A stretch of DNA of 38,406 nt from an uncultured Opitutia bacterium. GTDB lineage: Bacteria > Verrucomicrobiota > Verrucomicrobiia > Opitutales > Opitutaceae. The DNA is taken from positions 1-38,406 of the forward strand of contig CAIYFD010000313.1 of assembly GCA_903925425.1 (NCBI GenBank), written 5' to 3'. Every line of letters starts with the position of its first letter. Position 1 is the first letter of the stretch. Shown piece by piece: positions 4,896 through 37,575 of the stretch. A program made the position numbers and the translations under genes. Under the pieces are notes generated by a model, which had not been told where the DNA came from, did not search any database, and saw only the letters and a program-made list of their open reading frames with translations.

Positions 4896-7559
4896 TCACA
4901 GCGCGGGCACGTGGGCGACGGTGTTGTGGATCTCGGCCTCGAGTGGCCGGCCGGCGGCGGTGTTGATGGTGAAGTTCACCTTCATCTGCATGACCGGCTT
5001 GATGCCCGGGATCTCGAGAAAGAGGGTGCGGCCGTCGGCCGAGAGCTGGACGGATTTCACGTCCACCGAATCGTGTTCCTGTTTGGTGGGGTCCTTGACC
5101 GAGTATTCCGCGGAGCCGTAGCTGGAGGTCCACTTGTAGTTCCACTGCTCCACCGCAAAATTCTGCAGGTCGGTGGCGGATTTCCGTTCGAGCGGAACGG
5201 TGAAGTCGATTTGGAGTCCGCCCGCCACCACATGAAGCTGCGCCGGCATCTCCACGTCCTTGCCGGTGTAGCGGACGCGCTGGAAGGCGCCGTCGCGCAC
5301 CGCGGTGGTCTGCCAGCCCTTCAGGCCGCAGAGGTAGAGCTGGCCGTCGACGGCGTTGAACCGTGCGCGCATCACGCCGGTGTCGACCGTGAGCGGGAAG
5401 CGGAACACGCCGCCCTGGTTCAGGCCCCCGGAGACCTCGCGCATGACGAGGAACAGGGAGGTCTTGCCATAGGATGTATAGATCAAGCCTCCGCCAAAGG
5501 GACCCCAGCGGTTGTTGTTGGGCACCCAGGCCTGGCCGCCGCCGGAGTTGTCGATGGTGCCGTGGGGCAGCCACATGATGGGATTACCATAGTTGTCGGG
5601 TGGCACCGCGCGCTGCGCAAGATCGACGACGCCGAGGAAGTCGCCTTGCTTGACGAGGTTAAGGCGGTCGGCGGGCGTCCAGGTGCCCTCGTTGTCGGCG
5701 AGGGTAAGCTCGTCATTCGGTCCGATGCCCATGCCGTTCGGCGCGCGCACGCCGGTGGCAAAGATGTCGAGCTTCGCGCCGTCGGCCGAAACCCGCAGGA
5801 CCGTGCCGGTGTGCGGGGTGATCACCTGCCAGCCGCGGCCGCCGGGAGCGACGGCGCCGCCCTTGGCGAAATAGAAATTGCCGGCGCGGTCCGTTTGGAG
5901 ATCGAGCGCGAACTCATGGAACGAAGGCGACACGATGACGTCGTGGTTGAAGCTCTCGTAGAAGTCCGCCTCGCCGTCGCCGTTCAGATCCTTCAGGCGC
6001 GTGATGCCGTCGCGGCCGAGCACGTACACCTCGTCCTTCACGATGCGGAGGCCGAGCGGCTGGAAGAGGCCGGTTGCGAAACGCTTCCACGTGAGGGATT
6101 CGAGTTTCTCGTCGATGCCCGAGACGATCCAGACATCGCCGCTCCACGTGGTGATGGCAGCGCGATGGCCGTCGGCGAAGAAGTCGAAGCCGCCGAAGCG
6201 CATCCAGGAGAAGTACGGGTTGTTGTCGGGCGCGGTGATGGTGTCCACGGTGTAGGCCCCGTCAGGCGTGGTGCTGGTGCCGAGCTGGCCCTTGGTGACG
6301 ATCTTCTCGTTCCAGCGCGAGGGACCGCCCTGTTGCGAAAGCGCGAGGTCGGGAGCGGGCGGGGCGGACTTGAGCCAGGCGTTGAAGGCGGTCTGCGTCT
6401 CCGGGACGATCTGGGTGACGGCGACCGTGAACGTGGCGCCGTCGGGCAGGACGGGCAGGCGGAGCGCCATGCGGCCGGCCTGGACATCGAACTGCATGCC
6501 CTCGACCGCGCCGATCAGGCCGGCGACGGTCCGGACCTCGGAGGCGGCGGGGATGCGGACCATGCCGATGGTCAGGCCGGCGTCCTTGGGCGTTTCCCCC
6601 ACGGGTTCCGTGGTGGGGCTCACGTCCGCGATGAGGAGCGACCGCTGCAGGGTGCTCGGCCCAACCTTGAACGTGCGGGTGAAAACCGGGGTGCCGTCGG
6701 CGAGCTTCGCCAGGCCCGGGGATTCCAGGACCTCGGTGTCGCCCACGGTGTAGGACACGACGACGCGATCGCCGTTGAGATAAAGGCCTCGGTATTTACC
6801 GGTGGCTGCGGGGAGAGGGCCGAACGGTTTTTCCCGGGGATCGGTGAAGGTGGGGCGCGCTGCGCCGGCGACCCAGCCCGGGACGGCGGCGGTGGCAAAA
6901 CTGAGGCGGCCGGCCGGCACGGGGTTGGGCCCGTGGACGCCGTTGAAGGCCACGCCGGTCAGGGTGAGAAAGCCATCGGTCCAGCCCGCGGACCAACGGA
7001 GGAGATCCGTGTCGAAGAGCATCGCGCCCTCTCCGGCGGCGCCGAGCTTGATGGCGATGCCCTTGTTGGTCGTGTTGCCCTGCGGCCAGCGCGCGACGAT
7101 GGTGGCGGACAGGAACGGGCCGTAGTCGATCGCCTGGGCCTTGCTGGAGCTGAGGAGGGTCGCGGCCGACATGCCCGTGATCGAGCCGGCCGGCGTGCGT
7201 TGCACCACGACCGCGACTTGGTCCGGGGCGAGCTTGTCGGGTGAGCGCTGCAACCGGGCAAAGGAATCGGCCCGGGCGAGGGCGAGCGCGCGTTCCGCGG
7301 TGGCGAGGGCCTCGGCTTTCGCGGTGATCGCCGCCGGATCACCCGGGATGAGGAGGGAGGCCTCGGTCAGCGCGGTGCGGGCGTTAACCACGGACTGCAA
7401 CGGGACCGCGACGTCCTGATCGAGCGCGTTGGTCAGGCCCAGCGTCTGTGCCGAGGTGACATTGGGGATGGGCGGGCGGGCGGCGGCTTGGGCGAGGACG
7501 GAATTCGCGCCAAGGCTGCACGAAACCACGGTAACGATGACGAAGGCAGGAATCTTCAT
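4896..7559 (-). CDS. Secreted PVC-type membrane-bound-dehydrogenase-domain / glucose-sorbosone-dehydrogenase-like beta-propeller protein
   Basis: An internal ATG at 7559 gives the signal peptide MKIPAFVIVTVVSCSLGANSVLAQA. The central region shows propeller-like repeats (DGHRAAITTWSGDVWIV, DLNGDGEADFYESF, GNFYFAKGG, RAPNGMGIGPNDELTLADNEGTW). The protein has no CxxCH of its own. Confidence 0.7.
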   Translation of the reverse strand: MKIPAFVIVTVVSCSLGANSVLAQAAARPPIPNVTSAQTLGLTNALDQDVAVPLQSVVNARTALTEASLLIPGDPAAITAKAEALATAERALALARADSFARLQRSPDKLAPDQVAVVVQRTPAGSITGMSAATLLSSSKAQAIDYGPFLSATIVARWPQGNTTNKGIAIKLGAAGEGAMLFDTDLLRWSAGWTDGFLTLTGVAFNGVHGPNPVPAGRLSFATAAVPGWVAGAARPTFTDPREKPFGPLPAATGKYRGLYLNGDRVVVSYTVGDTEVLESPGLAKLADGTPVFTRTFKVGPSTLQRSLLIADVSPTTEPVGETPKDAGLTIGMVRIPAASEVRTVAGLIGAVEGMQFDVQAGRMALRLPVLPDGATFTVAVTQIVPETQTAFNAWLKSAPPAPDLALSQQGGPSRWNEKIVTKGQLGTSTTPDGAYTVDTITAPDNNPYFSWMRFGGFDFFADGHRAAITTWSGDVWIVSGIDEKLESLTWKRFATGLFQPLGLRIVKDEVYVLGRDGITRLKDLNGDGEADFYESFNHDVIVSPSFHEFALDLQTDRAGNFYFAKGGAVAPGGRGWQVITPHTGTVLRVSADGAKLDIFATGVRAPNGMGIGPNDELTLADNEGTWTPADRLNLVKQGDFLGVVDLAQRAVPPDNYGNPIMWLPHGTIDNSGGGQAWVPNNNRWGPFGGGLIYTSYGKTSLFLVMREVSGGLNQGGVFRFPLTVDTGVMRARFNAVDGQLYLCGLKGWQTTAVRDGAFQRVRYTGKDVEMPAQLHVVAGGLQIDFTVPLERKSATDLQNFAVEQWNYKWTSSYGSAEYSVKDPTKQEHDSVDVKSVQLSADGRTLFLEIPGIKPVMQMKVNFTINTAAGRPLEAEIHNTVAHVPAL

Positions 7560-7755
7560 GGGTAATAAAGGCTCGCCGTTCGGCGGCCACAGGGCCGGCG
7601 GACAGGCAGGGCTGCTACAATCGGAGGGGGTGGATCCATGAGGATTTTTCCGGCCTCGGGCGTCAACCGCTAACCCGGGGAAGAGCGCGCCCGGCGCCGC
7701 CTGAACCTTGCAGACGAAACTTGGCAACGGCGCCGGGCTGCACTGCCTTGGAGCG

Positions 7756-8488: not shown

Positions 8489-10630
8489 CTAAAGCCCGAG
8501 GAGCCCGCGCAGCTGGGTGTAATAGCCCTGATGGCGCAGCAGCCATGCGGCGACCGCGAGGGCCGCGACCACGGCCGTGACGGTGAACTGCCGGCGCTTC
8601 CTCACCGCCTCCTTGTCTTCGTAAGGATCCTCCAGTGAACGGTGCGATCCGGGTGGGAGCATCGCCACGTCGGTCAGCGCCGTGCCGAAGGGAAGGTTGA
8701 TCTTCACGCGGCCGTTCACCGCCCAGCCGTTACCCTCGAGGATGGGACCGAGCGTGCGCTGGCGGAGCTTGAGCCACGCGATGGCCATGGACGGGAGCGA
8801 GATCACGAGGATAACGCCGACCAGGACCAGCGGGAGCTGCCAGACTGCGAGTTTGGCGAGGCCCGTGGCGATGGCTCCGAGGGCGCCCATGATGGCGCCG
8901 AATGCCACGCCCAAGGCGGCGACCGTGCCGATATCGATCTTTTTGGGGGCGGCGGCGGGGCCGGTCTTGTCCGCGTTGGCGGTCTTCTCCGCGGCGGCCG
9001 CGAGCCGGCTGTTGGACTCGGCATCCGCGGCGGCCGCCCGCTTGGCGACCTGTTCCTCGATCATCCGGATGAATTTCTTGTAGGGGGCCCAGAACGCCTG
9101 GCGGATGCTGATCGGGTTGTCCGTGATGCTCGTGATGACGGCGTCCCAATCCCGGCCCTGCCGGTCGTAGAATACGCCGTGGCGGCCGACGAAGAGATAG
9201 TCGCTGTCGCCCTGCGTGAAGCAGGCGGCGATGACCATCGTCGGGGCGTTTTTCCGCGTGCAGCTGCAGTAGGCGATGTAGGCCTTGCTCATCGCGGCGA
9301 GCGGGTTCGGTCCGTCGACCTTCAAGCAGAGCTCGGTCGAGCGGCTGTCGAGGTAGAGCGTGCCGGCCTGGAAAACGGCGAGGCGGTCGCGCGAATAGAA
9401 GTCGGCGAAGTTGACGAAATTGTGCAGCAGCGCGCGGAGGTCGCGGTGGTAGCGCACGAGCCGCTCGACGTCCGTGATGGCCTTGAGCTCCGGCTCGAGC
9501 GCCTGGTCCCGCGCGACCAGCGCGGCGAGGGCGGCCTGGCTGTTGCCGGCGAGAATCTCCTTCACGCGCGGCAGGCCGAGTTGCTCGACGGCGCTGCCCT
9601 GCTTGCCGCCCAGCCAGGTTTCGTAGGGGGCAAATCGGGTGGCGAGGTCGGTCCACTCCTGCTCGGTCAGGCTGGCCTTGGCCGCGCCGAGGAGGGGAGC
9701 GACCACCCGGGAATGCAGGCCGGCGAGGGCGGTGGCCCAGGCCGGATTGACCCCCGCCCGCAGCGGCAGGGGTTGGTTGGCCTCGATGCGGGCGAGGGGA
9801 AATCCGGAGATTTCCTCCGCGGTGATCTTCATGTCCTTGGCCGCGATCGCCAGGTAGTCGGCCTCGCTCCGGTTGAGGGCGCCGAGGGCCCGCTGGTCAA
9901 ACGCGGCCAGCCGGGTCCGCGCAAAATAATCCTCCACCTTCGGCCGCACCGCTTTCAGCGCGGCGCAGGCGGCGGCGGTTTCCTCGCCGAGGATGGCGAT
10001 GTCCTTGGTGGCGCTCTGTTCGACCCACGAGGCGTAGGCGGCCAGCTCGGTGAAAAAGGCCGCGATCTTCTCGGCGGTCACGCCCACGGCGCCGGTGCGG
10101 TCATTACTGCCGCCGAGGCAGGTGACGATGTCCTTGATGAGGGCCTGGACTGCCGGGTCGTCGGTCGCCTCGGGGGGGATCACGCCGTCGCCATTGAGCG
10201 GGCTGGCTGAAAAGATCTTCGCGGTGTCGGCCGCCTCGGCGACCGAGATCGTCGCCGCATCCTTTTTCCCGAGATTGATCAGGATCTGGCGCGCGGAGCG
10301 GAGCAGGATTTGCCCGTCCGGCGTCGCGTCGTTGATTGCGTCCAGCGGGAGGGATTCATCGCCGCGGAGCACGATGGCCGGTTCCTTGAGCCGGGCGGCC
10401 GCCCACTGCACGGACGCGATAAGCTCGGCGACGCGGATGCGGCCGTCGTCATCGGAGTCGATCAAGGCGAGGGTTTTCTCGTCGAGCTCGAGCCCCTTCA
10501 CGGGGCAGCTCAGTGCGACCCAGAGCTTCTGGTCGAGCCCGGGCAGGGCGAGCAGGTCCGCGGCGGAGGCGAGGGTGACCTGGTCGAGGCCGCCGGTGCG
10601 GAAGAAGTTCCAAGGGTGCGTGGTCGGCAT
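8489..10630 (-). CDS. Conserved hypothetical membrane protein with an N-terminal EF-hand-type Ca-binding loop
   Basis: 713 aa from ATG 10630 (MPTTHPWNFFRTGG...). The DSDDDGRIRVAEL loop fits the DxDxDG EF-hand pattern. A soluble region of about 590 aa is followed by three hydrophobic segments near the C-terminus. No enzymatic motif was recognised. Confidence 0.6.
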   Translation of the reverse strand: MPTTHPWNFFRTGGLDQVTLASAADLLALPGLDQKLWVALSCPVKGLELDEKTLALIDSDDDGRIRVAELIASVQWAAARLKEPAIVLRGDESLPLDAINDATPDGQILLRSARQILINLGKKDAATISVAEAADTAKIFSASPLNGDGVIPPEATDDPAVQALIKDIVTCLGGSNDRTGAVGVTAEKIAAFFTELAAYASWVEQSATKDIAILGEETAAACAALKAVRPKVEDYFARTRLAAFDQRALGALNRSEADYLAIAAKDMKITAEEISGFPLARIEANQPLPLRAGVNPAWATALAGLHSRVVAPLLGAAKASLTEQEWTDLATRFAPYETWLGGKQGSAVEQLGLPRVKEILAGNSQAALAALVARDQALEPELKAITDVERLVRYHRDLRALLHNFVNFADFYSRDRLAVFQAGTLYLDSRSTELCLKVDGPNPLAAMSKAYIAYCSCTRKNAPTMVIAACFTQGDSDYLFVGRHGVFYDRQGRDWDAVITSITDNPISIRQAFWAPYKKFIRMIEEQVAKRAAAADAESNSRLAAAAEKTANADKTGPAAAPKKIDIGTVAALGVAFGAIMGALGAIATGLAKLAVWQLPLVLVGVILVISLPSMAIAWLKLRQRTLGPILEGNGWAVNGRVKINLPFGTALTDVAMLPPGSHRSLEDPYEDKEAVRKRRQFTVTAVVAALAVAAWLLRHQGYYTQLRGLLGL

Positions 10631-10783: not shown

Positions 10784-12136
10784 TCAGGGCCGGTGCAGCG
10801 TGATCACGCACTCAAGGTGGCGGGTCTGCGGGAAGAGATCGAACGGCTGCACTGCGGCGAGCGTGTAGCCGGCGGCGAGGAAGGCCTTGAGGTCGCGCAT
10901 CTGCGTGGCCGGGTCGCACGAGACGTAGACGACGGTGTGCGGGGCGAAGGCAAAGAGCTGGGTGAGGAAGGACTCGTCGCAGCCCTTGCGCGGCGGGTCG
11001 ATGATCACGGCGGTCTCGGCGGCGGGAAACGTCAGCCCGGCGAAGATCGCCGCGGCGTCACCCGCGCGGAATTCGGCGTTGGCGATGCCGTTGGCCGCGG
11101 CATTTTCCCTCGCGAAGCGGACGCTGCTCTCGCTGATCTCGATGCCGGTCACGCGCTCGAATGCCGGCGCGGACGACAGCGCGAAGAGCCCGCTGCCACA
11201 GTAGGCGTCGACGAGGAAACGGGCCGGGCCGGCCGAGGCCTGTACCCGCACATAGCCGGTGAAGGCCGGGAGGATGAAGGGGTTGTTCTGGAAAAAATCG
11301 CGGGCGAGAAAACGGAGCCGGAGCGCCGGTGACGGACTCTGGCTGGCGATCTCCTCGGTGATGATGGCATCGTAGTCGGTCGTGACGCCCTCGGCGGCAT
11401 GGCGGAGGAGCAGGGTGGCATCGCGCTTATAGAATCCCTCGGCGAGTCGCTGCCGGGTTTTGGCGCGCACCTCGGTCAGCTGCGCGTTGATCTCCGGGGT
11501 GGCGATCGGGCACTCCGGGACGTCGACCAGTTCGAAGCGGTTCCCGGCCCGAAGAAACCCGATGGGGGACTCTGGGGTAGTCGCGACCGCATCTGAGATC
11601 TGAGATTTGAGATTTGAAGTTCCCGCATTTTGCCGCGGCGCGGCAAAATGAGGCGTGAGCTTCGACCGGTAGCCGTACTCGCGCGGAGACGCGATGACCG
11701 GGTTCACCGGGAACTCGACGCCCGCCATGTATTTCAACAGTTCGCCGACCTGGCGCTGTTTCCAGAGCAATTGCTCCGCGTAGGCGAGATGCTGGTACTG
11801 GCAGCCACCGCAGCGCCCGAAAAGGCTGCACCGGGCGGCGACCCGCTGGGGCGAGGGGGTGAGCACCGCGATGAGATCGGCCTCGGAGAAATTCTTCTGG
11901 TTGCGGAAAATCCGCACCCGCACCCGTTCGCCGGGCAGGGTGAAAGGGACCATCACAACCCAGCCGCCAGCCGAGGCCGGAGGCTGGCTCGTGGTTTCAG
12001 ACTTCAGATCTGAAATTTGAGACTCCGGCAAGGCCACGCGGCCCAAGCCCGACCCCAGGTTGGTGAGCGTGCTGATCTCCAGCTCGATCTCCTGATGATA
12101 GGCGAACGGATGGTCGTTCAATTTGTTTTTTCCCAC
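10784..12136 (-). CDS. SAM-dependent RNA (uracil-5)-methyltransferase, RlmD/RumA/TrmA family, with TRAM domain and Fe-S cysteine cluster
   Basis: TRAM-like N-terminus (EIELEISTL..GSGLGR...VPFTLPGERVRVRI), a CGGCQYQH cluster, the SAM motif DAYCGSGLFAL, DPPRKG, and C-terminal VYVSCDP...LFPQT.H.E. The start is either GTG 12136 or TTG 12121. The 910-aa track ORF is a shadow extension. The gene contains two in-frame AT-rich heptamer cassettes. Confidence 0.8.
   Translation of the reverse strand: MGKNKLNDHPFAYHQEIELEISTLTNLGSGLGRVALPESQISDLKSETTSQPPASAGGWVVMVPFTLPGERVRVRIFRNQKNFSEADLIAVLTPSPQRVAARCSLFGRCGGCQYQHLAYAEQLLWKQRQVGELLKYMAGVEFPVNPVIASPREYGYRSKLTPHFAAPRQNAGTSNLKSQISDAVATTPESPIGFLRAGNRFELVDVPECPIATPEINAQLTEVRAKTRQRLAEGFYKRDATLLLRHAAEGVTTDYDAIITEEIASQSPSPALRLRFLARDFFQNNPFILPAFTGYVRVQASAGPARFLVDAYCGSGLFALSSAPAFERVTGIEISESSVRFARENAAANGIANAEFRAGDAAAIFAGLTFPAAETAVIIDPPRKGCDESFLTQLFAFAPHTVVYVSCDPATQMRDLKAFLAAGYTLAAVQPFDLFPQTRHLECVITLHRP
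11591..11621. repeat. AT-rich heptanucleotide tandem-repeat cassette A
   Basis: + strand units: atctgag atctgag atttgag atttgaa gtt. On the gene (minus) strand this reads TCAAATC TCAAATC TCAGATC TCAGAT and is translated as TSNLKSQISD inside the methyltransferase. The tract is about one-third G+C in a much more GC-rich background. Confidence 0.9.
11994..12024. repeat. AT-rich heptanucleotide tandem-repeat cassette B (dyad-symmetric)
   Basis: + strand units: gtttcag acttcag atctgaa atttgag act, containing the perfect palindrome ttcagatctgaa. Translated as ESQISDLKSET inside the TRAM domain of the same gene. Confidence 0.9.
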
Positions 12137-14609: not shown

Positions 14610-16345
14610 GACGCCGCGTCCTCCGAGAGCGGTTTCGCCGTCGCGGCCCATTTGGCTAGGGTGAGCCGGTGAATCTTGGCGTTGTGGCGGGTGTCCACGG
14701 GAAAAAGCGGATGCACGAAGAACTGACGGATGCCCGCCGTCTGGGGCCGGGATTCGGCCGCTTTTTGCAGCAGGGCGAGGAGCATGACTCGGTCGGTGGT
14801 GAGCGATGATTCCTCCACCACCAGCGCCGGGGTCATGCGGCCCGGAGCACCCAGCCCGATCAGCGCGACGCGCAGGCCGGCGAAAGTGCTGCGAAACACC
14901 TGTTCGCACGGGTCGGTGAAAAGGGTCCCGTCAGCCGTGATCACGCGCTCGGCCTTGCGGCCGCAAAACCAGAGCCGGCCTTCGGGATCGAGCAGGCCGC
15001 AGTCGCCCATGCGGTGCCAGACCTCGGCGCGGGGCGTCGAGGAGGCGGAAGGCGGGAGGTGGGAGGCGGGAGGAGTGGATCTGGCGTCGAAGATTTTCGC
15101 CGCTGCCGTGGCCTCGGGCAGGGCATCGTACTCGCGGGTGACCACCGGCCCACGGACGATGATCTCACCGATCTCGTCGGGCGAAAGCGTCCGGGCCTCG
15201 GTCAGGCGCGCGAGGGGCTCGTCGGAGATCGCGATGATCCGCACCTCGATCCCCGGCAGGGGGCGCCCGACGCAGGTGCCCTGCGGTTGGGCGAGCAGCG
15301 GCAGCGCCTCGGCGGCGGAGATGCTGGCGACGGGCAGCGCCTCGGTGGCGCCGTAAGGGCTGTGCATCTGGCCGGCGGGAAGCCACGCGGTTGAGCTTTG
15401 CCAGAGCGCGGCGGGGACAGGAGCGCCGGCGCAGAGGACCCGGCGGAGTGAGGGCAGGGTGATGCCTTGGTCGCGGCAGTGGGTGCCGATCTTTGTCCAC
15501 AGGGTCGGCGAGCCGAAGGAGTTGGTGACTTTTTCCTGCTGGATGGCCTGCGCGATCTTGGCGGGGTCCACCGTGGCGGGGCGGCTGGGGTCGATCTCCG
15601 GCACGATGGTGGTCATGCCCAGCGCGGGATTGAAGAGGGCGAAGATCGGCAGCATCGGCAGGTCGATCTCGCCGGGCTGGATCCCGTAGGTTTCACGAAT
15701 CAACTGCACCTGCGCCTCGAACATGCCGTGTTCGTAGCAGACCCCCTTGGGTGCGCCGGTGGAGCCACTCGTGAACAGCACGGCGGCGAGGTCCGCGGCC
15801 GTGTTGCTCGCGATTTCAAATTTCAAATTTGAGATTTGAGATTGGGCGGTGAGGCGGGCCGTGAGGGAGCCGCTGACGGGGACGGTGATCTCCACGGAAC
15901 GGAAGGAGCCGCGGAAGAGATGTCGCACGAGGCGGGCCATCGGGATCCCGACGAGGGCGCGGGGGCGGGAGCGGGCGACGCAGGCGAGGAAACTTTTCAG
16001 GCCCATGCCGGGGTCGATGATGATCGGCACCGCGCCCAGCTGGAAGAGGCCGAAGGTGGCCGCGATCAACGGGAGTCCCGGGCGGACCATCACGAGCGTG
16101 CGATCGCCGCGGCGCACGCCGTGCGCCTGCAGCCGCGCGGTCCAGGCGTCGGCCTCGGCGGCGAGTTCGCGGAAACTGAGGCTCAGGTAGTCGATCGCGC
16201 CGGCGGCGGTCCTCCCACGCGGAATCTTGAGCGCGGGCGTGTCCGGCTGGCTCGCCGCCATGAGCCGGAGGTGTCGCGCGATGTTGGCGTCAGCCGGGGT
16301 AGGCACGTCGGGATGGCGGGGGTCCGTGGCGCCCGGCCGGCTCAA
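14606..16345 (-). CDS. AMP-dependent synthetase/ligase (fatty-acid CoA ligase family, OleC-like)
   Basis: 579 aa. Adenylate-forming motif LFTSGSTGAPKG, plus YGATE and a C-terminal region typical of the ANL superfamily. The start is TTG 16345, overlapping the rnd stop as TTGA, or GTG 16306. The gene contains an in-frame heptamer cassette just upstream of the P-loop motif. Confidence 0.8.
   Translation of the reverse strand: MSRPGATDPRHPDVPTPADANIARHLRLMAASQPDTPALKIPRGRTAAGAIDYLSLSFRELAAEADAWTARLQAHGVRRGDRTLVMVRPGLPLIAATFGLFQLGAVPIIIDPGMGLKSFLACVARSRPRALVGIPMARLVRHLFRGSFRSVEITVPVSGSLTARLTAQSQISNLKFEIASNTAADLAAVLFTSGSTGAPKGVCYEHGMFEAQVQLIRETYGIQPGEIDLPMLPIFALFNPALGMTTIVPEIDPSRPATVDPAKIAQAIQQEKVTNSFGSPTLWTKIGTHCRDQGITLPSLRRVLCAGAPVPAALWQSSTAWLPAGQMHSPYGATEALPVASISAAEALPLLAQPQGTCVGRPLPGIEVRIIAISDEPLARLTEARTLSPDEIGEIIVRGPVVTREYDALPEATAAAKIFDARSTPPASHLPPSASSTPRAEVWHRMGDCGLLDPEGRLWFCGRKAERVITADGTLFTDPCEQVFRSTFAGLRVALIGLGAPGRMTPALVVEESSLTTDRVMLLALLQKAAESRPQTAGIRQFFVHPLFPVDTRHNAKIHRLTLAKWAATAKPLSEDAAS
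15812..15843. repeat. AT-rich heptanucleotide tandem-repeat cassette C (dyad-symmetric)
   Basis: + strand units: gatttca aatttca aatttga gatttga gatt. Translated on the minus strand as QSQISNLKFEIAS. G+C is about 22% by direct count (7 of 32 nt). Confidence 0.9.
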
Positions 16346-30247: not shown

Positions 30248-31573
30248 TCAGACCGGGGGAATGCTGTCGAGCTCCCGCTCCAGGCGGACGCGGCGGGGGA
30301 AGTCGGGGCCGCCGTCGAGCACGATGGCGCGGATCTCGCCGACGGAGACGTGTTCGTCGCGTTGCGGGACGCGGCCGAGGTGGCGGACAAACCAGGCGCC
30401 GACCGATTCGCGCGGCAGCCATTCGAGCGGCCAGCCGGTCTCGGCCTGGATCTCCCGCAGGGTGAAAGCGCCGCTGACGGTGATGGAATGCTCGGTCCGC
30501 TCGAAGATGGGGCCGCGCTCGATGTCGAACTCGTCGCGGATGTCGCCGACAATCTCCTCGAGCACGTCCTCGAGTGTGATGATCCCGGCGAGGCCGCCGG
30601 CGTCGTCGAGCACGGCGGCGAGGTGGCTGCGCGCGCTCCGGAACCGTTCGATCATCTCGGAGAGCGGGGTGGTGAGCTTGAAGCGCACGATGGGCCGCAC
30701 GAGCGGGGTGAAGGGCACTTCGCCGCCAAGCGCCTGGATCTGCCAGAGCCACTCGCGCACCAGGACGACGCCCTTGAGGTTGTCGAGGCTGCCCTCGCAG
30801 ACCGGAAAGCGGCTGTGGCCGGAAGTCTGCGCGATGCGGATGTTTTCCGCCGGCGGGCGGTCCAGCCAGAGGGCCACGGCCTGGTCGCGCACGCGCATGA
30901 TCTGGCGGGCGGTGGTGCCGCGGACGCGCAGCGATTGCACCATGAGCTTGTTGACCAGGGCATCGCCTGGGTGGTGGTGCCGCGAGTGGCTGAAGACGTA
31001 CTCAAGTTCCTCGGCGCTGAGGGTCTGGTCATGCGAACCGGAGGGCCCGAGCCCGAGCCAGCCGAGGATGCGGCTTGAACTGCGGTTGAGCACCCAGATG
31101 AAAGGAAAGAACGCGCAGTAGAAGACGATCAGCGGGGCGGCGACCCAGATGGTCACGGCGGTGGACCGCTGGATGGCGAGCCACTTCGGGCCGAGCTCGC
31201 CGAAGACGATGTGGAAAAACGTGATCGTGACGAAGGCCACGGCGAACGAGATCGATTCGACCGTGCCGTGATTCGTGATGCCCCAGCCGGCCAGCACCGG
31301 CTCGAGGTGTTCGGCGACAAACGGCTCGCCGATCCAGCCCAGCCCGAGGCTGGCAAGAGTGATGCCGAGCTGGGTGGCGGAGAGGATGGCGTCGAGGTGC
31401 GTGACCGCCCAAAGCGCGAGCTTCACCCGCCAGCCGCCGGTTTTCACGAGCGGCTTGAGCTGGCTGGTGCGGACCTTGATAAGCGCGAACTCCGCCGCGA
31501 CGAAAAATCCGTTGGCGGCCACCAAGGCCAGGACAGCCAGGGTTTCGAGGGCGATGCCAAACACGTTCGTCAT
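30248..31573 (-). CDS. CNNM/HlyC/CorC family transporter (DUF21-CBS pair-CorC_HlyC)
   Basis: 441 aa. DUF21 N-terminus (NGFFVAAEFALIKVR), a CBS region, and a C-terminal CorC_HlyC-like region (LDDAGGLAGIITLEDVLEEIVGDIRDEFD). Confidence 0.85.
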   Translation of the reverse strand: MTNVFGIALETLAVLALVAANGFFVAAEFALIKVRTSQLKPLVKTGGWRVKLALWAVTHLDAILSATQLGITLASLGLGWIGEPFVAEHLEPVLAGWGITNHGTVESISFAVAFVTITFFHIVFGELGPKWLAIQRSTAVTIWVAAPLIVFYCAFFPFIWVLNRSSSRILGWLGLGPSGSHDQTLSAEELEYVFSHSRHHHPGDALVNKLMVQSLRVRGTTARQIMRVRDQAVALWLDRPPAENIRIAQTSGHSRFPVCEGSLDNLKGVVLVREWLWQIQALGGEVPFTPLVRPIVRFKLTTPLSEMIERFRSARSHLAAVLDDAGGLAGIITLEDVLEEIVGDIRDEFDIERGPIFERTEHSITVSGAFTLREIQAETGWPLEWLPRESVGAWFVRHLGRVPQRDEHVSVGEIRAIVLDGGPDFPRRVRLERELDSIPPV

Positions 31574-31656: not shown

Positions 31657-31729
31657 TTTCACGTATTACGTGAAAAGTGCGTACCGCGCCTGTGGGCGGC
31701 TCCGCCAAACACGTCACGTATTGCGTGAC
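31657..31729. promoter_or_regulatory. Twin palindromic boxes TCACGTATT(A/G)CGTGA upstream of the CNNM gene
   Basis: tttcacgtattacgtgaaa (31657-31675) is a perfect 9+1+9 palindrome. gtcacgtattgcgtgac (31713-31729) has 6-bp perfect arms. The centres are 55 bp apart. Both lie in the 179-bp gap between the copA stop and the CNNM start. Confidence 0.5.
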
Positions 31730-31752: not shown

Positions 31753-33780
<2,028 letters not shown>

Positions 33781-33842: not shown

Positions 33843-33871
33843 CCGCGGGGTGCGGGCACCTCGCCCCGCGG
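33843..33871 (-). terminator. GC hairpin downstream of the pentapeptide-repeat gene
   Basis: ccgcgggg-N13-ccccgcgg forms an 8-bp stem. On the minus strand it is followed by tgggtgaaatccttttc. Confidence 0.35.
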
Positions 33872-33924
33872 GAAGATCACATGGTGCCCTCCGGGAAATC
33901 CATGGGTAACAAATACTGCGGCCG

Positions 33925-34191
33925 TCAGGCCTTCTTTTCGTAAACGCGAAAAAGCTCCGTCACCAGCACGCCGTTGATCTTCATGCCGGCGAGATTGCAG
34001 TTCTCGAACTCGACGTTGGTGAGATTGATGTCGCTGAACTTCGTGTCGCTGAGGTTGACGTCGGCAAACAGGGACTCCGCCAGGTTCACATCCGTGAACT
34101 GCGCCTCGTGCAGGTCGACGTTGGTGAACTGCGAGCCCGACAGGTACGTGTTTGTGGCGATGAGGGTTTCGCTGGTATTGGTGAGGTGCAT
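33925..34191 (-). CDS. Pentapeptide-repeat protein
   Basis: 88 aa. Consecutive A(D/N)LxX-type pentapeptides are visible (SQFTNVDLHEAQFTDVNLAESLFADVNLSDTKFSDINLTNVEFENCNL). G+C is visibly lower than in the neighbouring genes. Confidence 0.8.
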   Translation of the reverse strand: MHLTNTSETLIATNTYLSGSQFTNVDLHEAQFTDVNLAESLFADVNLSDTKFSDINLTNVEFENCNLAGMKINGVLVTELFRVYEKKA

Positions 34192-34350
34192 GGGGGGCGG
34201 ACGCTAGGTGCAGCAGGGCGCGAGTTTGATACCAGCCCGCCGAGGCATGACCAGCGCGGACTGGGTTGGGTGCGTTCCGAATCCGGTTTTGTTCGGGGAA
34301 TCCGCGGCTAAACGAGGACCGGGATCGCGGCGCAATGCCGTTCCTGCGGC

Positions 34351-37300
34351 CTAAGCCTTCAACTGCCGCTCGCGGAGCCAGGCGAAGATCACCGGGGTCA
34401 CGATTAGGATGTGGACGAGCGAGGAGAGCATGCCGCCGACGACGGGGGCGGCGAGAGGGCGCATGACTTCCACGCCGGTGCGGGTGCTCCAGAAGATCGG
34501 GAGCAGGCCGGCGACGGCGGTGGCGACGGTCATGACCTTCGGGCGGAGGCGGAGGCGGGCGCCTTCGCGGATCGCGAGGAGCAGCTCCTCGCGATCCAGT
34601 TGAAGGTTGGAAGTTGAAAGTTGAAGGTCGGGTGAAAGCGCGGCGCGCTTGGCAGCGAGACGCCGTTTTACGGCGTCTTCCAAATACACGACCATCACCA
34701 CGCCGGTCTGGATGGCGGTGCCAAAGAGCGCGATGTAGCCGACCCAGACGGCCACGCTGAAGTTGTAGCCGAGCAAACCCTGCAGGATCACGCCGCCGGT
34801 CAGGGCGAAAGGCACGGCGAGAATCACGTGCGCGGCCTCGGCGGCGGAGTGGAACGTGAAGCAGAGGATCAGGAAGATGATGACCAGCACCGCCGGCATG
34901 ATCAGCTGCAGCGTGGCGCGGGCGCGGAGCTGGTTCTCGTACTGGCCGGAGTATTCGAGCGTCATGCCGGGATCGAGTTTGACCTCCTTGGTGACGGCGG
35001 CGCGGACGTCCTCCACGAAACCGCCGAGGTCGCGTCCGGTCACGTTGGCCTGCACGTAGGCGCGGAGCCGGCCGTTCTCGCTCGCGATCTCGTTCGGCCC
35101 GAGCACGCGCTTGATCGTGGCGACCTGCTGCAGGGGAACGTAGGCGCCCGACGGCAGCGGGACCGGGATGGCGCCGAGGCGGTCGATGTCCTCGCGGTCC
35201 GACTTTTCGAGGCGGACCTGCACCGGCCAGCGCTCACGGCCCTGGATCGTGGTCGTGGCGGTGCGCCCGCCGAGGCCGGTCTCGGCGATGGCAAGCACAT
35301 CGGCCGCGCTGAGTCCGAAGCGGGTGAGGGCGGCGCGGTCGACGGAGATCTCGAGATAGGGCTTGCCCTGTACGCGGGAGGGCGAGACGCCCGCGGCGCC
35401 GGGGATCTTGCTGACGACCGCCTCGATCTCGAAGGCCTTGCGCTGAATGGCATCGAGGTCGTCGCCAAAGATCTTCAGTCCGAGCTGGGCGCGGATGCCG
35501 GTGGAGAGCATCAGTACGCGGTTCTCGATCGGCTGGAGGAAACCCGCGGCATAGCCGGGCACCTGGGTGAGTTTTTCCGAGAGGTCGGTAATCAGCATCT
35601 CCTGGGTCATTCCGGGCCGCCACGCGGAGGCCGGCTTGAGCGTGATGGTGGTCTCGATCATCTCTGCCGGCGCAGGATCGGTGGCGGTGTCGAACCGGCC
35701 GAGTTTGCCGGCGACGGACGCGACCTCGGGGGTGGCGGCGATGACCTTGTCCTGCCAGGCCATGATGCGCTTGATCTCGGTAAGCGAGGTGCTCGGCACC
35801 AGCACCGGCATGAAGAGCAGGCTGCCCTCCTGCAGGGTCGGCATGAATTCGGAGCCGAACCCGCCGACGAGGCGTCCGGCGGAAGGCGGGAGGCGGGAGG
35901 CGATGGAGCGCGGCAGCCCGAAGGCGAGCAGGGCGCAGGCGGCGAGCAGCGTGGCGGCGCAGCCGAGGACCGTTTTGCGGTGCTCCAGCGCCCAGTTCAG
36001 GACCGGGTCGTAGATCGCGAGGAGGAAACGCATCAGCCAGTTGCGGTCTTCGGAGTGGAACGGGCCGCGCACGAGATAAGTGCAGAGCACAGGCACGAGC
36101 GTCACGGCGAGCACCGTGGCACCGAGCATCGCGAAGCTCTTGGTCCAGGCCAGCGGATGGAAGAGCTTTCCCTCCTGCCCGGTCAGCGTGAACACCGGCA
36201 CGAAGGCCAGAATGATGATCGCCATCGCGAGGAAGATGGGCCGGCCGACCTGCTGTGAGGCCTCGAGCGTGACCTGCCATGTTTCGGCGGACGTGAGGCG
36301 TGAGCCCTTGGCCTTCTCGGCGAGCTCGCAGTGCCGGATGACATTCTCGGTCATCACGATCGCGGCGTCCACCAGCACGCCAATGGCAATGGCGATGCCG
36401 GTCAGCGACATGATGTGCGACTGGATGCCGAATTCCTTCATCAGGATGAACGCGATCAGGATCGAGGCGGGCAGCGGCAGCGTGACGATCAGGATGCTGC
36501 GGAAGTGAAAGAGAAACAGGACGTGCATCAGCGTCACGAGGATGACGGCTTCCCAAAGCGTGTGCTTGAGCGTGTCGATCGCGCGGCCGATCAGGTCGCT
36601 GCGGTCGTAGAACGGCTCGATCGTCACCCCGGGCGGCAGGCCCGGCGCGATCTGCGCGATCTTGGCCTTCACGTCCTGGATCACCTGCCAGGCGTTCTCG
36701 CCCGACCGCATCACGACCGTGCCACCGACCACCTCGTGCCCGTCGACATCGAGCGCACCGCGGCGGTAGTCGCCGCCGATCTGCACCGTGGCCACGTCGG
36801 TGAGCCGAATCGGCACGCCCTGGCGGACGTCGAGCGCGATGCTTTCGAGATCCGCGGCCGACTTGATCAGGCCGACGCCACGGACGATGAACTCCATGCC
36901 GTTTTCCTCAAGGGTGCGGCCGCCGACGTTGAGATTGTTGCGGGCGATCGTCTCCAGCACGCGGTCGAGCGTGAGCCCGAGCGCGCGGAGTTTGACCGAC
37001 GAGACCTCGACCTGCCACTGGCGCACGAACCCGCCGATGCCGGCGACCTCGGCCACGCCCGGGACGGACGCGAGTTGGAAGCGGATGAAATAATCCTGCA
37101 GCGCGCGGAGGGATCCGAGGTCCTGTTTCCCGGAGGTGTCCTTGAGATGGTACTGATAAACCCAGCCCAGCCCGGTGGCGTCGGGCCCGAGGCGCGGGGT
37201 GACCCCGGCCGGGAGGAGGTTACCGAGGTAGTTCAGCCGCTCGAGGACGCGGGTGCGGGCGAAGTAATTGTCGATCTTGTCGTCGAAGATCACCGTGAGC

Positions 37301-37575
37301 AGCGAGAACCCGAACATCGAGTTGGCGCGCACGCTGCGGACACCGGCGAGGCCCTGAAGGTTGACCGAGAGCGGGTAGGTGATCTGGTCCTCGATCTCCT
37401 GCGGGCTGCGGCCCTCCCAGTCGGCGAAGACGATGACCTGGTTCTCGCTCAGGTCCGGGATCGCGTCGATGGGGACGCGGCGGATGGCGAAGAGGCCCCA
37501 GCCGAAAAGGAGCAGCGTGGCCCCGAGGACCAGCAGGCGGTTTTCGAGCGACCAGCGGATGAGCCGGTTGATCAT
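34351..37575 (-). CDS. cusA: CusA/CzcA family heavy-metal efflux RND permease
   Basis: 1074 aa. N-terminal MINRLIRWSLENRLLVL, 12-TM RND architecture and a C-terminal RLRPKVMT...LP motif. The ATG overlaps the cusB stop (ATGA). A variant heptamer cassette sits in a C-terminal loop. Confidence 0.9.
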   Translation of the reverse strand: MINRLIRWSLENRLLVLGATLLLFGWGLFAIRRVPIDAIPDLSENQVIVFADWEGRSPQEIEDQITYPLSVNLQGLAGVRSVRANSMFGFSLLTVIFDDKIDNYFARTRVLERLNYLGNLLPAGVTPRLGPDATGLGWVYQYHLKDTSGKQDLGSLRALQDYFIRFQLASVPGVAEVAGIGGFVRQWQVEVSSVKLRALGLTLDRVLETIARNNLNVGGRTLEENGMEFIVRGVGLIKSAADLESIALDVRQGVPIRLTDVATVQIGGDYRRGALDVDGHEVVGGTVVMRSGENAWQVIQDVKAKIAQIAPGLPPGVTIEPFYDRSDLIGRAIDTLKHTLWEAVILVTLMHVLFLFHFRSILIVTLPLPASILIAFILMKEFGIQSHIMSLTGIAIAIGVLVDAAIVMTENVIRHCELAEKAKGSRLTSAETWQVTLEASQQVGRPIFLAMAIIILAFVPVFTLTGQEGKLFHPLAWTKSFAMLGATVLAVTLVPVLCTYLVRGPFHSEDRNWLMRFLLAIYDPVLNWALEHRKTVLGCAATLLAACALLAFGLPRSIASRLPPSAGRLVGGFGSEFMPTLQEGSLLFMPVLVPSTSLTEIKRIMAWQDKVIAATPEVASVAGKLGRFDTATDPAPAEMIETTITLKPASAWRPGMTQEMLITDLSEKLTQVPGYAAGFLQPIENRVLMLSTGIRAQLGLKIFGDDLDAIQRKAFEIEAVVSKIPGAAGVSPSRVQGKPYLEISVDRAALTRFGLSAADVLAIAETGLGGRTATTTIQGRERWPVQVRLEKSDREDIDRLGAIPVPLPSGAYVPLQQVATIKRVLGPNEIASENGRLRAYVQANVTGRDLGGFVEDVRAAVTKEVKLDPGMTLEYSGQYENQLRARATLQLIMPAVLVIIFLILCFTFHSAAEAAHVILAVPFALTGGVILQGLLGYNFSVAVWVGYIALFGTAIQTGVVMVVYLEDAVKRRLAAKRAALSPDLQLSTSNLQLDREELLLAIREGARLRLRPKVMTVATAVAGLLPIFWSTRTGVEVMRPLAAPVVGGMLSSLVHILIVTPVIFAWLRERQLKA
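34598..34628. repeat. Heptanucleotide tandem-repeat cassette D (GTTGAAR variant)
   Basis: + strand units: agttgaa ggttgga agttgaa agttgaa ggt. Translated on the minus strand as DLQLSTSNLQLD within cusA. Confidence 0.85.

Follow-up and report, generated by a model that had tools for sequence, protein, structure and literature searches.

The DNA analysed here, a 38,406-nucleotide stretch from an uncultured freshwater Opitutia bacterium (hereafter the window; 67% G+C), carries on its minus strand cusA, a gene for a heavy-metal pump, and within this gene a short tract of four heptanucleotide units which we call T4. By full-length similarity, an ACR_tran domain (PF00873), an adjacent cusB and a methionine triad, the predicted product is a CusA-type Cu(I)/Ag(I) pump of the heavy-metal efflux resistance-nodulation-division (HME-RND) class. 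Residues 1-1070 match the E. coli CusA structures 3K07 and 3T51 (E = 8e-252), and in locus L001 a CusB-type gene lies upstream and overlaps the cusA start. The three-methionine metal site, which we take to be M573, M623 and M672 in E. coli numbering, is kept as aligned methionines in the window protein (LFMP, AEMIETT and LMLSTG). The named relatives are metagenome-assembled genomes of Opitutaceae or Verrucomicrobiota, and the window sequence itself was found in lake and biofilm metagenomes.

The T4 tract and its surroundings

On the plus strand T4 reads AGTTGAA GGTTGGA AGTTGAA AGTTGAA GG, a degenerate series of four units with the consensus RGTTGAA. Tandem Repeats Finder (TRF) reports it at 34598-34625 with period 7, 4.0 copies, 80% matches and the unit AGTTGAA, that is, as the head-to-tail 7-nucleotide copies typical of bacterial heptameric simple sequence repeats (SSRs). 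The coding strand, with YTTCAAC-type units, is CCTTCAA CTTTCAA CTTCCAA CCTTCAA CTG and is translated as (P)DLQLSTSNLQL(D). The in-frame peptide is DLQLSTSNLQLD, which appears in the translation of the minus-strand open reading frame (ORF) 34351-37575 as ...SPDLQLSTSNLQLDREELLLAIREGARLRLRPKVMT... and in its wider context as ...AAKRAALSPDLQLSTSNLQLDREELLLAIREGARLRLRPKVMT..., confirming the proposal of a first-pass annotation that a four-unit heptamer tract is read through in cusA. By the topology of RND pumps the tract sits in the cytoplasmic loop between transmembrane helices 10 and 11 (TM10-TM11); this loop measures 18-61 amino acids in 67 orthologues, as expected of the variable loop in which the tract had been placed. 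All three frames of the sense strand are open, as had been stated. The accompanying statement that the antisense orientation carries TGA in all frames holds for an idealised repeat only: in T4 itself TGA closes two of the three plus-strand frames, the third remaining open because the second unit is GGTTGGA. The codons of the tract are AT-rich and rare for a 67% G+C genome.

Three palindromes lie close to T4 (Table 1). All of them are cusA coding sequence (EDAVKRRL, AKRAAL and DREELLLAI) and not the ends of a cassette. The 9-bp-stem hairpin at 34658-34678 is present as first described, and the palindrome on the other side of the tract is also real, although the 19 bp at 34574-34592 originally assigned to it cover only the inner part of a perfect 14+1+14 structure. 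The 126-nucleotide region 34560-34685 has a folding energy of −37.9 kcal/mol (z = −5.5 relative to shuffles), and in this fold T4 is unpaired between helices.

Table 1 Positions of the tracts, palindromes and host gene in the window.
Feature	Position	Strand	Basis	Content
cusA, CusA/CzcA-type heavy-metal RND pump, 1074 aa	34351..37575	-	PF00873; structures 3K07/3T51	hosts T4 and G2
T4, heptamer tract	34598..34628	- (minus-strand gene)	TRF, six-frame translation, DNA fold	in cusA
Perfect 14+1+14 palindrome	34569..34597			GGATCGCGAGGAGC a GCTCCTCGCGATCC; abuts T4; encodes DREELLLAI
7+1+7 palindrome	34636..34650		read from sequence; helix in fold	AAGCGCG g CGCGCTT; encodes (A)KRAAL
9+3+9 hairpin	34658..34678			AGACGCCGT ttt ACGGCGTCT; encodes conserved EDAVKRRL, end of TM10
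T1	11589..11620	-	TRF, Pfam, translation	CATCTGA GATCTGA GATTTGA GATTTGA; TRAM/U5-methyltransferase gene, SNLKSQISD
Perfect 12+1+12 palindrome	11626..11650			CATTTTGCCGCG g CGCGGCAAAATG; adjoins T1; encodes HFAAPRQN
T2, inverted 2+2	11994..12023	-		GTTTCAG ACTTCAG / ATCTGAA ATTTGAG; TRAM-domain loop of TRAM/U5-methyltransferase, ESQISDLKSE
T3, inverted 2+2	15812..15843	-	TRF, Pfam, translation	GATTTCA AATTTCA / AATTTGA GATTTGA; AMP-binding enzyme, SQISNLKFEIAS
G1, GC-rich (GGAGGCG)n	15041..15077	-	TRF 15041-15073	AMP-binding enzyme, PPASHLPPSASS
G2, GC-rich (GGCGGGA)n on plus strand, (CGCCTCC)n coding	35871..35906	-	TRF 35878-35902	cusA, SIASRLPPSAGR

The length of the tract does not vary in the sequences we compared. 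Eight cusA protein variants with 99-100% identity, from 37 contigs, all have 1074 residues, and the 1076-residue protein P0009 has a TM10-TM11 loop identical to that of the window. Across 34300-35000, Logan contigs from four metagenomes display no insertion or deletion in T4 and a single nucleotide polymorphism (34654 A>G), with the proviso that rare variants may stay hidden in a comparison based on contigs rather than raw reads.

Two further repeats were detected by TRF downstream of the cusA stop codon: two copies of a 23-bp unit just 3′ of it (33863-33905) and 3.5 copies of a 15-bp unit with 67% matches (34012-34063).

Period-7 tracts in the window, in related loci and in phages

Scanned for stretches with at least 17 of 21 self-matches, the window contains five period-7 tracts, against 0.055 expected from Markov-3 shuffles, and no tracts of periods 4, 5, 8, 10 or 11. 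A looser scan yields six, the AT-rich T1-T4 and the GC-rich G1 and G2, all in frame within minus-strand genes. GATYTGA-type units occur three times in the 38 kb, in two genes, and RGTTGAA once. Several of the host sites are variable: T1 lies at a loop hot spot among methyltransferase orthologues, the TRAM-domain loop that holds T2 varies among them, and G2 occupies a cusA hot spot (residue ~562) where orthologues have other units. T3 sits immediately before the TSGSTGxPKG motif of the AMP-binding enzyme.

Some minor features of these tracts deserve mention. The AT-rich ones all have TTGA or CTGA on the plus strand. The peptides of G1 and G2 are rich in Pro, Ser, Ala and Arg; their unit, (GGAGGCG)n on the plus strand, is stop-free both ways, yet the C-rich strand is the sense strand in G1, in G2 and in similar tracts of orthologues. 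The methyltransferase loops also gather other recurrent inserts, such as '(L/P)GTC(D/G/K)L(E/G/D)' and 'IENQKSxIxN'.

The same excess is seen in relatives. An independent 955 kb contained 23 period-7 tracts, as compared to 1, 0, 1, 1 and 0 for periods 4, 5, 8, 10 and 11, and 73 were counted in 2.44 Mb of loci, drawn from Verrucomicrobiota with some Acidobacteriota. Four units is the mode (41 of the 73, with five units in another 21), the median length is 31 nucleotides, and 62 tracts are lower in G+C than their own genome. The units form a connected family whose members are one or two substitutions apart: CTTTCAA (T4), CTCAACY, CTCAAAT (GATTTGA in reverse complement) and CTCAGCY. They are found together within individual genomes and phage contigs, and the suggestion of a family of related heptamers rather than a single sequence is supported. 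Intergenic tracts are often arranged as inverted pairs (L011, L073-L075, L079, L101, L111 and L135). At the cusB-cusA junction, heptamer tracts or pairs also run into the cusA start codon or lie immediately 5′ of it in six related loci, Blastocatellia (Acidobacteriota) included: L009 (9952-10003), L064 (9964-9997), L074 (9893-9998), L075 (8532-8650), L078 (120-163) and L027 (367-410).

Viral contigs are a further place where the family occurs. Searches of IMG/VR returned (RGTTGAA)3 in 50 stretches, (GATYTGA)3 in 39 and (CTCAACY)3 in at least 120, where by our own estimate fewer than one chance match is expected. The T4 unit, found once in the window, is not confined to it: it recurs in L013, in L190 and in these 50 viral stretches, and the refutation that uniqueness of the unit would have meant was not borne out. 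Per 100 kb, the IMG/VR contigs with heptamers have about 35 period-7 tracts; many such contigs combine several unit types, and in those inspected the units are arranged as inverted pairs. One contig, L347, is a genuine tailed-phage structural module encoding portal, head protease, major head protein and tape measure; its inverted pairs occupy short gaps right after ORFs and form long hairpins (−45 to −51 kcal/mol). L190 contains a (GGGTGAA)n/(CCTTCAA)n pair, which has a unit in common with T4.

The pairs of L347 lie at 395-504, 845-932, 5562-5648, 6726-6825, 8880-8971 and 9648-9750. In this and other phage contigs of 60-64% G+C (L306, L257 and L190), almost all gaps between the genes of the structural module hold an inverted pair, which forms a hairpin of 30-50 bp straight after the end of an ORF. 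These hairpins are possibly terminators or processing sites.

Turnover of the cusA loops and palindrome covariation

In an alignment of 32 orthologues, cusA differs in length at five spots (residues ~148, ~423, ~562, ~809 and 979-991). The cusA genes of 88 loci hold 22 period-7 tracts, every one at one of four loop positions, and in 18 of the 22 the sense strand is C-rich and G-poor. At residue ~562 at least six unit types occur (CGCCTCC, CTCAGCY, CTCAACY, GATTTCA, CGTCTCC and CACTCGC). At residue ~148, P0066 (VSPTPSLNSQPSTLNS) and P0082 (VSDTPSLKSQISDLES) have a common insert in which every unit is different, CTCAACY in the one and CTCAAAT-type in the other upon back-translation, which argues for homogenisation within the tract.

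The T4 site is inherited: at about 80% DNA identity, other Opitutaceae cusA genes have heptamer-periodic DNA at the same place. L088 reads CCTTCAA CCTTCAA CTTCCCA CTTTCAA, L086 reads CTCTCAG CTCTCAT CTCTCAA CTCTCAG, and L087 has six CYTTCAA-type units, so that the copy number is four in the window, L088 and L086 as against six in L087, and the units differ. The orthologue comparison, which the first-pass annotation had put forward beforehand as a possible refutation, therefore does not refute its reading, as the site is repetitive at the DNA level in L086-L088. The tract is not significantly more conserved as DNA than the rest of the gene: its 88% identity to L088 (79% gene-wide) is equalled in 27% of 12-codon windows, and its identity to L087 is the gene average. 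A metagenome scan with the methyltransferase returned no relative above 74% identity.

The TM10-TM11 loop of cusA turns over by gain, loss and replacement. In L082 (95% amino acid identity) the loop contains a hairpin element of about 60 nucleotides, GGTAGGGC...GCCCTACC, and only a remnant of the 3′ end of T4; L083 and L085 have short loops at the T4 site; and in contigs of related populations the segment at about 34566-34666 is swapped for 93-124 unrelated letters. Presence or absence at orthologous sites, in frame and in surface loops, is a trait that the tracts have in common with insertions of repetitive extragenic palindromic (REP)-like and Rickettsia palindromic element (RPE)-like sequences.

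Other small elements use the same loops. The hairpin element of about 60 nucleotides, GGTAGGGCTGACTCGGTGAGTCAGCC...GTCCGCCCTACC, is read in frame as GRADSVSQPS...SALP, and which cusA loop it occupies depends on the close relative: the loop at residue ~985 in L082 (~7585-7650) and L084 and the loop at residue ~423 in L083. It looks like a REP element or miniature inverted-repeat transposable element (MITE) that inserts into coding loops. Another insert that recurs in frame, 'AGLRPA(x)GG(x)ETRPTL', is found in two different cusA loops (residues ~423 and ~985), within P0082 itself as well as among other orthologues (L003, L047 and L032).

The first-pass annotation had further proposed a cassette with a common flanking-hairpin architecture. 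Not only are the hairpins beside T4 cusA coding sequence, but the 28 tracts of related loci have no general association with hairpins: over 33 tracts, the best perfect stem within 45 nucleotides averages 4.9 bp, as against 4.9 bp at random control positions. A narrower link does exist. The direct AT-rich tracts T1 and T4 each abut a perfect palindrome with a stem of 12-14 bp, in a window that has about seven distinct perfect hairpins of 9 bp or more, and the inverted tracts T2 and T3 have a palindromic centre. At T1 the AAPR core of the palindrome is conserved and its outer 6 bp reach into the insert; over the methyltransferase orthologues, palindrome and insert follow only a weak trend (r = 0.28). 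In cusA the association is with the allele: a perfect stem of at least 8 bp just before 'GAR' is present in 6 of 11 insert-bearing alleles and in none of 56 short-loop alleles, counts which are not fully independent as the 67 orthologues are phylogenetically related. The palindrome accompanies inserts of any kind, heptamer or other.

Five of the six stem-bearing alleles have a common centre, E|L(L), and different complementary codon pairs in R-x-E-L-L-x'-A: GAG/CTC in the window, AGC/GCT in L082, GCG/CGC in L088, GGC/GCC in L084 and GAC/GTC in L032. The palindrome of P0010 is a perfect 13-bp stem with the pair AGC/GCT. This covariation acts at the nucleic-acid level and dictates the amino acids. 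It is compatible both with selection for the hairpin and with templated 'quasipalindrome correction'.

Origin and possible role of the tract

Among the long SSRs of many bacteria, heptameric ones are reported to be the most over-represented, with polymerase slippage proposed as their source (Mrazek 2007, as relayed in PMC4679880 and PMC4692102). The GGGAATC repeats of Xanthomonas and the GGGGAYT/STRR repeats of Nostoc prefer four units, form inverted pairs and vary between relatives (Rehm et al. 2015, PMC4692102); they are mostly intergenic, under-represented in coding DNA and G-quadruplex-forming (PMC4692102). The T4 family resembles them in its tandem 7-nucleotide units, period-7 excess, preference for about four units, inverted pairs, variation between relatives and apparent spread of one unit family over many loci. 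Unlike them, it is found in Verrucomicrobiota (Opitutaceae), a phylum for which our literature search found no publication on heptamer repeats; its units are AT-rich and cannot form G-quadruplexes, so G-quadruplex formation cannot explain the four-unit preference here; and all six window tracts are genic and in frame, with intergenic pairs seen in related loci and phage contigs.

The TAACTGA repeats of marine Beggiatoaceae, cyanobacteria and Bacteroidetes occur in sets of 2-6 copies (MacGregor 2015, PMC4679880). They carry stops in all frames one way; the other way, some ORFs read through them, at the periphery of the protein. A large share of the copies lie just upstream of start codons, and mobility was suspected, with no mechanism found (PMC4679880). 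T4 is likewise built of TGA-containing heptamers with stops in one orientation and the other open and read through, and heptamers here also lie upstream of start codons, in the six cusA loci. The unit is a different one, however, and belongs to a family rather than being a single heptamer; the tracts are placed at orthologous hot spots, in loops internal to conserved enzymes and transporters; and there is a link to phage intergenic hairpins.

Two other precedents bear on the loops and palindromes. Ogata and co-workers are said to have described, in 2000, Rickettsia palindromic elements as small repeat insertions in frame, and T4 is similar to RPE/REP-like elements in being short non-coding repeat DNA that is tolerated in frame in a surface loop and comes and goes among orthologues. 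The same cusA loops in relatives do hold a true hairpin element. Unlike such elements, T4 lacks terminal inverted repeats, a conserved full-length consensus and a hairpin of its own, and its copies are not near-identical but differ in unit. REPINs (PMC3116915) are a further example of REP/MITE-like elements. Perfect palindromes whose arms change together, amino acid changes included, would be accounted for by template switching between the arms of imperfect inverted repeats. Such quasipalindrome-templated mutation, which Ripley in 1982 and Dutra and Lovett in 2006 reportedly described, is a process rather than an element, and its action here would be read from the covariation pattern only.

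T4 is best read as a short degenerate heptanucleotide tandem repeat in an Opitutaceae genome, one of the heptameric 'long simple sequence repeats' of bacteria. It fits this known kind, from which it differs in phylum, in its AT-rich units that form no G-quadruplex, in its in-frame internal-loop hot spots with unit turnover and in the phage-hairpin link. A slippage-type origin is favoured because the period-7 excess, four-unit mode, inverted pairs and variation between relatives match those published for heptameric SSRs, and we put the case for it at about level, ahead of the other mechanisms: T4 was probably produced by slippage together with template switching, after which selection would have acted on frame, orientation and position in the loop, the peptide being a passive linker. 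The orthology of the site, the loop hot spots with their unit turnover, the tolerance of the loop for different lengths and the constant length of the protein variants also speak for this reading. In such a process, replication slippage and template switching would create and re-homogenise tracts of about four units (about 30 nucleotides). Within genes, a tract would survive only in a permissive surface loop, if read in the orientation that has no stops and if its total length is a multiple of three. The Leu/Gln/Ser/Thr/Asn peptide of T4 would then play no part in metal transport, and the tract in cusA is most likely a harmless linker. The adjoining perfect palindromes (R-x-E-L-L-x'-A as CGC-x-GAG...CTC-x'-GCG) may have been perfected by a context prone to template switching, or may be the cause of that context.

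Several observations weigh against slippage as a sufficient account. Plain slippage should amplify any local 7-mer, whereas one connected AT-rich unit family (CTCAACY, CTTTCAA and CTCAAAT) recurs across genes, genera and phages, which is indicative of a shared source or of a preference for certain sequences. Nor does plain slippage produce inverted tract pairs. Since four units make 28 nucleotides, which is not a multiple of three, each in-frame tract needs an extra change in its flanks. The closest relatives, L082-L085 (87-95% amino acid identity), have no intact tract at the T4 site and more distant ones have one, so that its history involves loss, replacement or recombination. The rare AT-rich codons of T4 have been retained, and third-position identity to L088 is 0.91 as compared to 0.63 gene-wide, albeit over 11 codons only. 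No slippage event was seen directly in the sequences compared.

The most serious competitor is a templated or mobile origin, which we consider possible but unlikely. The tracts would go back to a dispersed element that natively exists as an intergenic hairpin, has tandem-heptamer arms and is abundant in the phages and hosts of this group; pieces of it, either direct half-arms or inverted 2+2 forms, would be put into fragile or palindromic sites by a putative enzyme or as filler in break repair, and in-frame, stop-free loop insertions would survive. This would account for one unit family at unrelated loci in different genera, for the IMG/VR counts (50, 39 and at least 120 stretches, with less than one expected by our estimate), for the density and mixture of unit types in the viral contigs, for the inverted pairs after ORFs in the L347 phage module and for the pair in L190 that includes the cusA unit. 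T2 and T3 would be miniature inverted pairs; the near-constant tract size of about 30 nucleotides, the other small repeats gathered by the cusA and methyltransferase loops (the GGTAGGGC...GCCCTACC hairpin and the 'GLRPA..ETRPTL' element among them) and the restriction of the palindrome to insert-bearing alleles also fit. Yet no transposase, reverse transcriptase or other candidate enzyme turned up, though no search was made for one; the tracts have fuzzy ends and neither terminal inverted repeats nor target-site duplications; and their copies are not near-identical. Moreover, the tract at the T4 site is old and orthologous rather than a recent insertion, the unit changes within the insert common to P0066 and P0082 resemble evolution in place, and some IMG/VR contigs may be host DNA. 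We are more doubtful still of a wider proposal along these lines, in which Opitutaceae-type bacteria and their phages have a common system that makes or spreads heptamer DNA of about 30 nucleotides from intergenic hairpins and writes it into break or palindrome sites, genes included, with the co-varying 14-bp palindrome marking the target or a repair intermediate. Were it true, such a heptamer-writing system would create new loop peptides in conserved proteins.

The tract could instead be a functional cis-element, an account we regard as improbable. The G-poor, pyrimidine-rich and unpaired (YYUUCAA)n between hairpins of the cusA mRNA would be a place of binding or pausing, through which mRNA stability or the expression of the last two transmembrane helices is adjusted; among the candidates are a Rho utilisation-like site, a site for an RNA-binding protein of the S1, Csp or CsrA type, a rare-codon ribosome pause before TM11 and, at the DNA level, a protein-binding array. 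T4 does lie unpaired between three hairpins in a region of unusual folding energy (z = −5.5), five orthologues have compensatory codon pairs in the palindrome, the rare AT-rich codons are kept across about 20% DNA divergence, 18 of the 22 cusA tracts have the C-rich, G-poor strand as sense, and tracts lie directly upstream of the cusA start codon in six related loci, which echoes the translational regulation proposed for TAACTGA (PMC4679880). However, the tract is missing from the closest relatives and from most orthologues, and similar tracts are found in unrelated genes of the window (methyltransferase and AMP-binding enzyme). A search of 34200-35000 gave neither promoter-like nor terminator-like sites and Rfam had no match across the whole window, and templated mutation can keep palindromes perfect without selection. 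A phase-variable contingency locus, where gain or loss of one 7-nucleotide unit shifts the frame and switches off the last two CusA helices, seems very improbable. A 7-nucleotide unit within coding sequence would indeed break the frame, being no multiple of three, but phase-variable SSRs are long, near-perfect and length-polymorphic, and T4 has just four imperfect units with 80% matches, lies near the 3′ end of cusA and is constant in length among the eight variants from 37 contigs and in the contigs of four lake or biofilm metagenomes, rare variants aside. That T4 is low-complexity sequence which arose by chance or merely as a consequence of codon usage is scarcely credible: it is short and imperfect, but the window has five tracts where shuffles predict 0.055, period 7 alone is enriched, orthologues are periodic at the same site, and the codons are rare for this genome. 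The shuffle controls and the orthologue DNA effectively refute a chance origin.

The system described here offers handles on the origin of heptamers in bacteria generally and on their fixed 7-nucleotide period, four-unit preference and genome-specific units: the same cusA loop positions have different units in different lineages, making gain, loss and homogenisation datable on the gene tree; units that are not G-rich remove the G-quadruplex explanation of the four-unit preference; and the phage intergenic hairpins and the co-varying palindrome are testable leads on mechanism. The tracts also show non-coding repeat DNA turning into protein sequence in loops of essential-type proteins.

Two features of the window lie apart from the tracts. 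GC skew is positive on the plus strand (about +0.1) across nearly all of 1-38406, and every gene examined is on the minus strand. A perfect 9+1+9 palindrome at 31657-31675 (TTTCACGTA t TACGTGAAA), in the AT-rich island that separates the minus-strand ORFs 30248-31573 and 31753-33780, could be an operator for a dimeric regulator.

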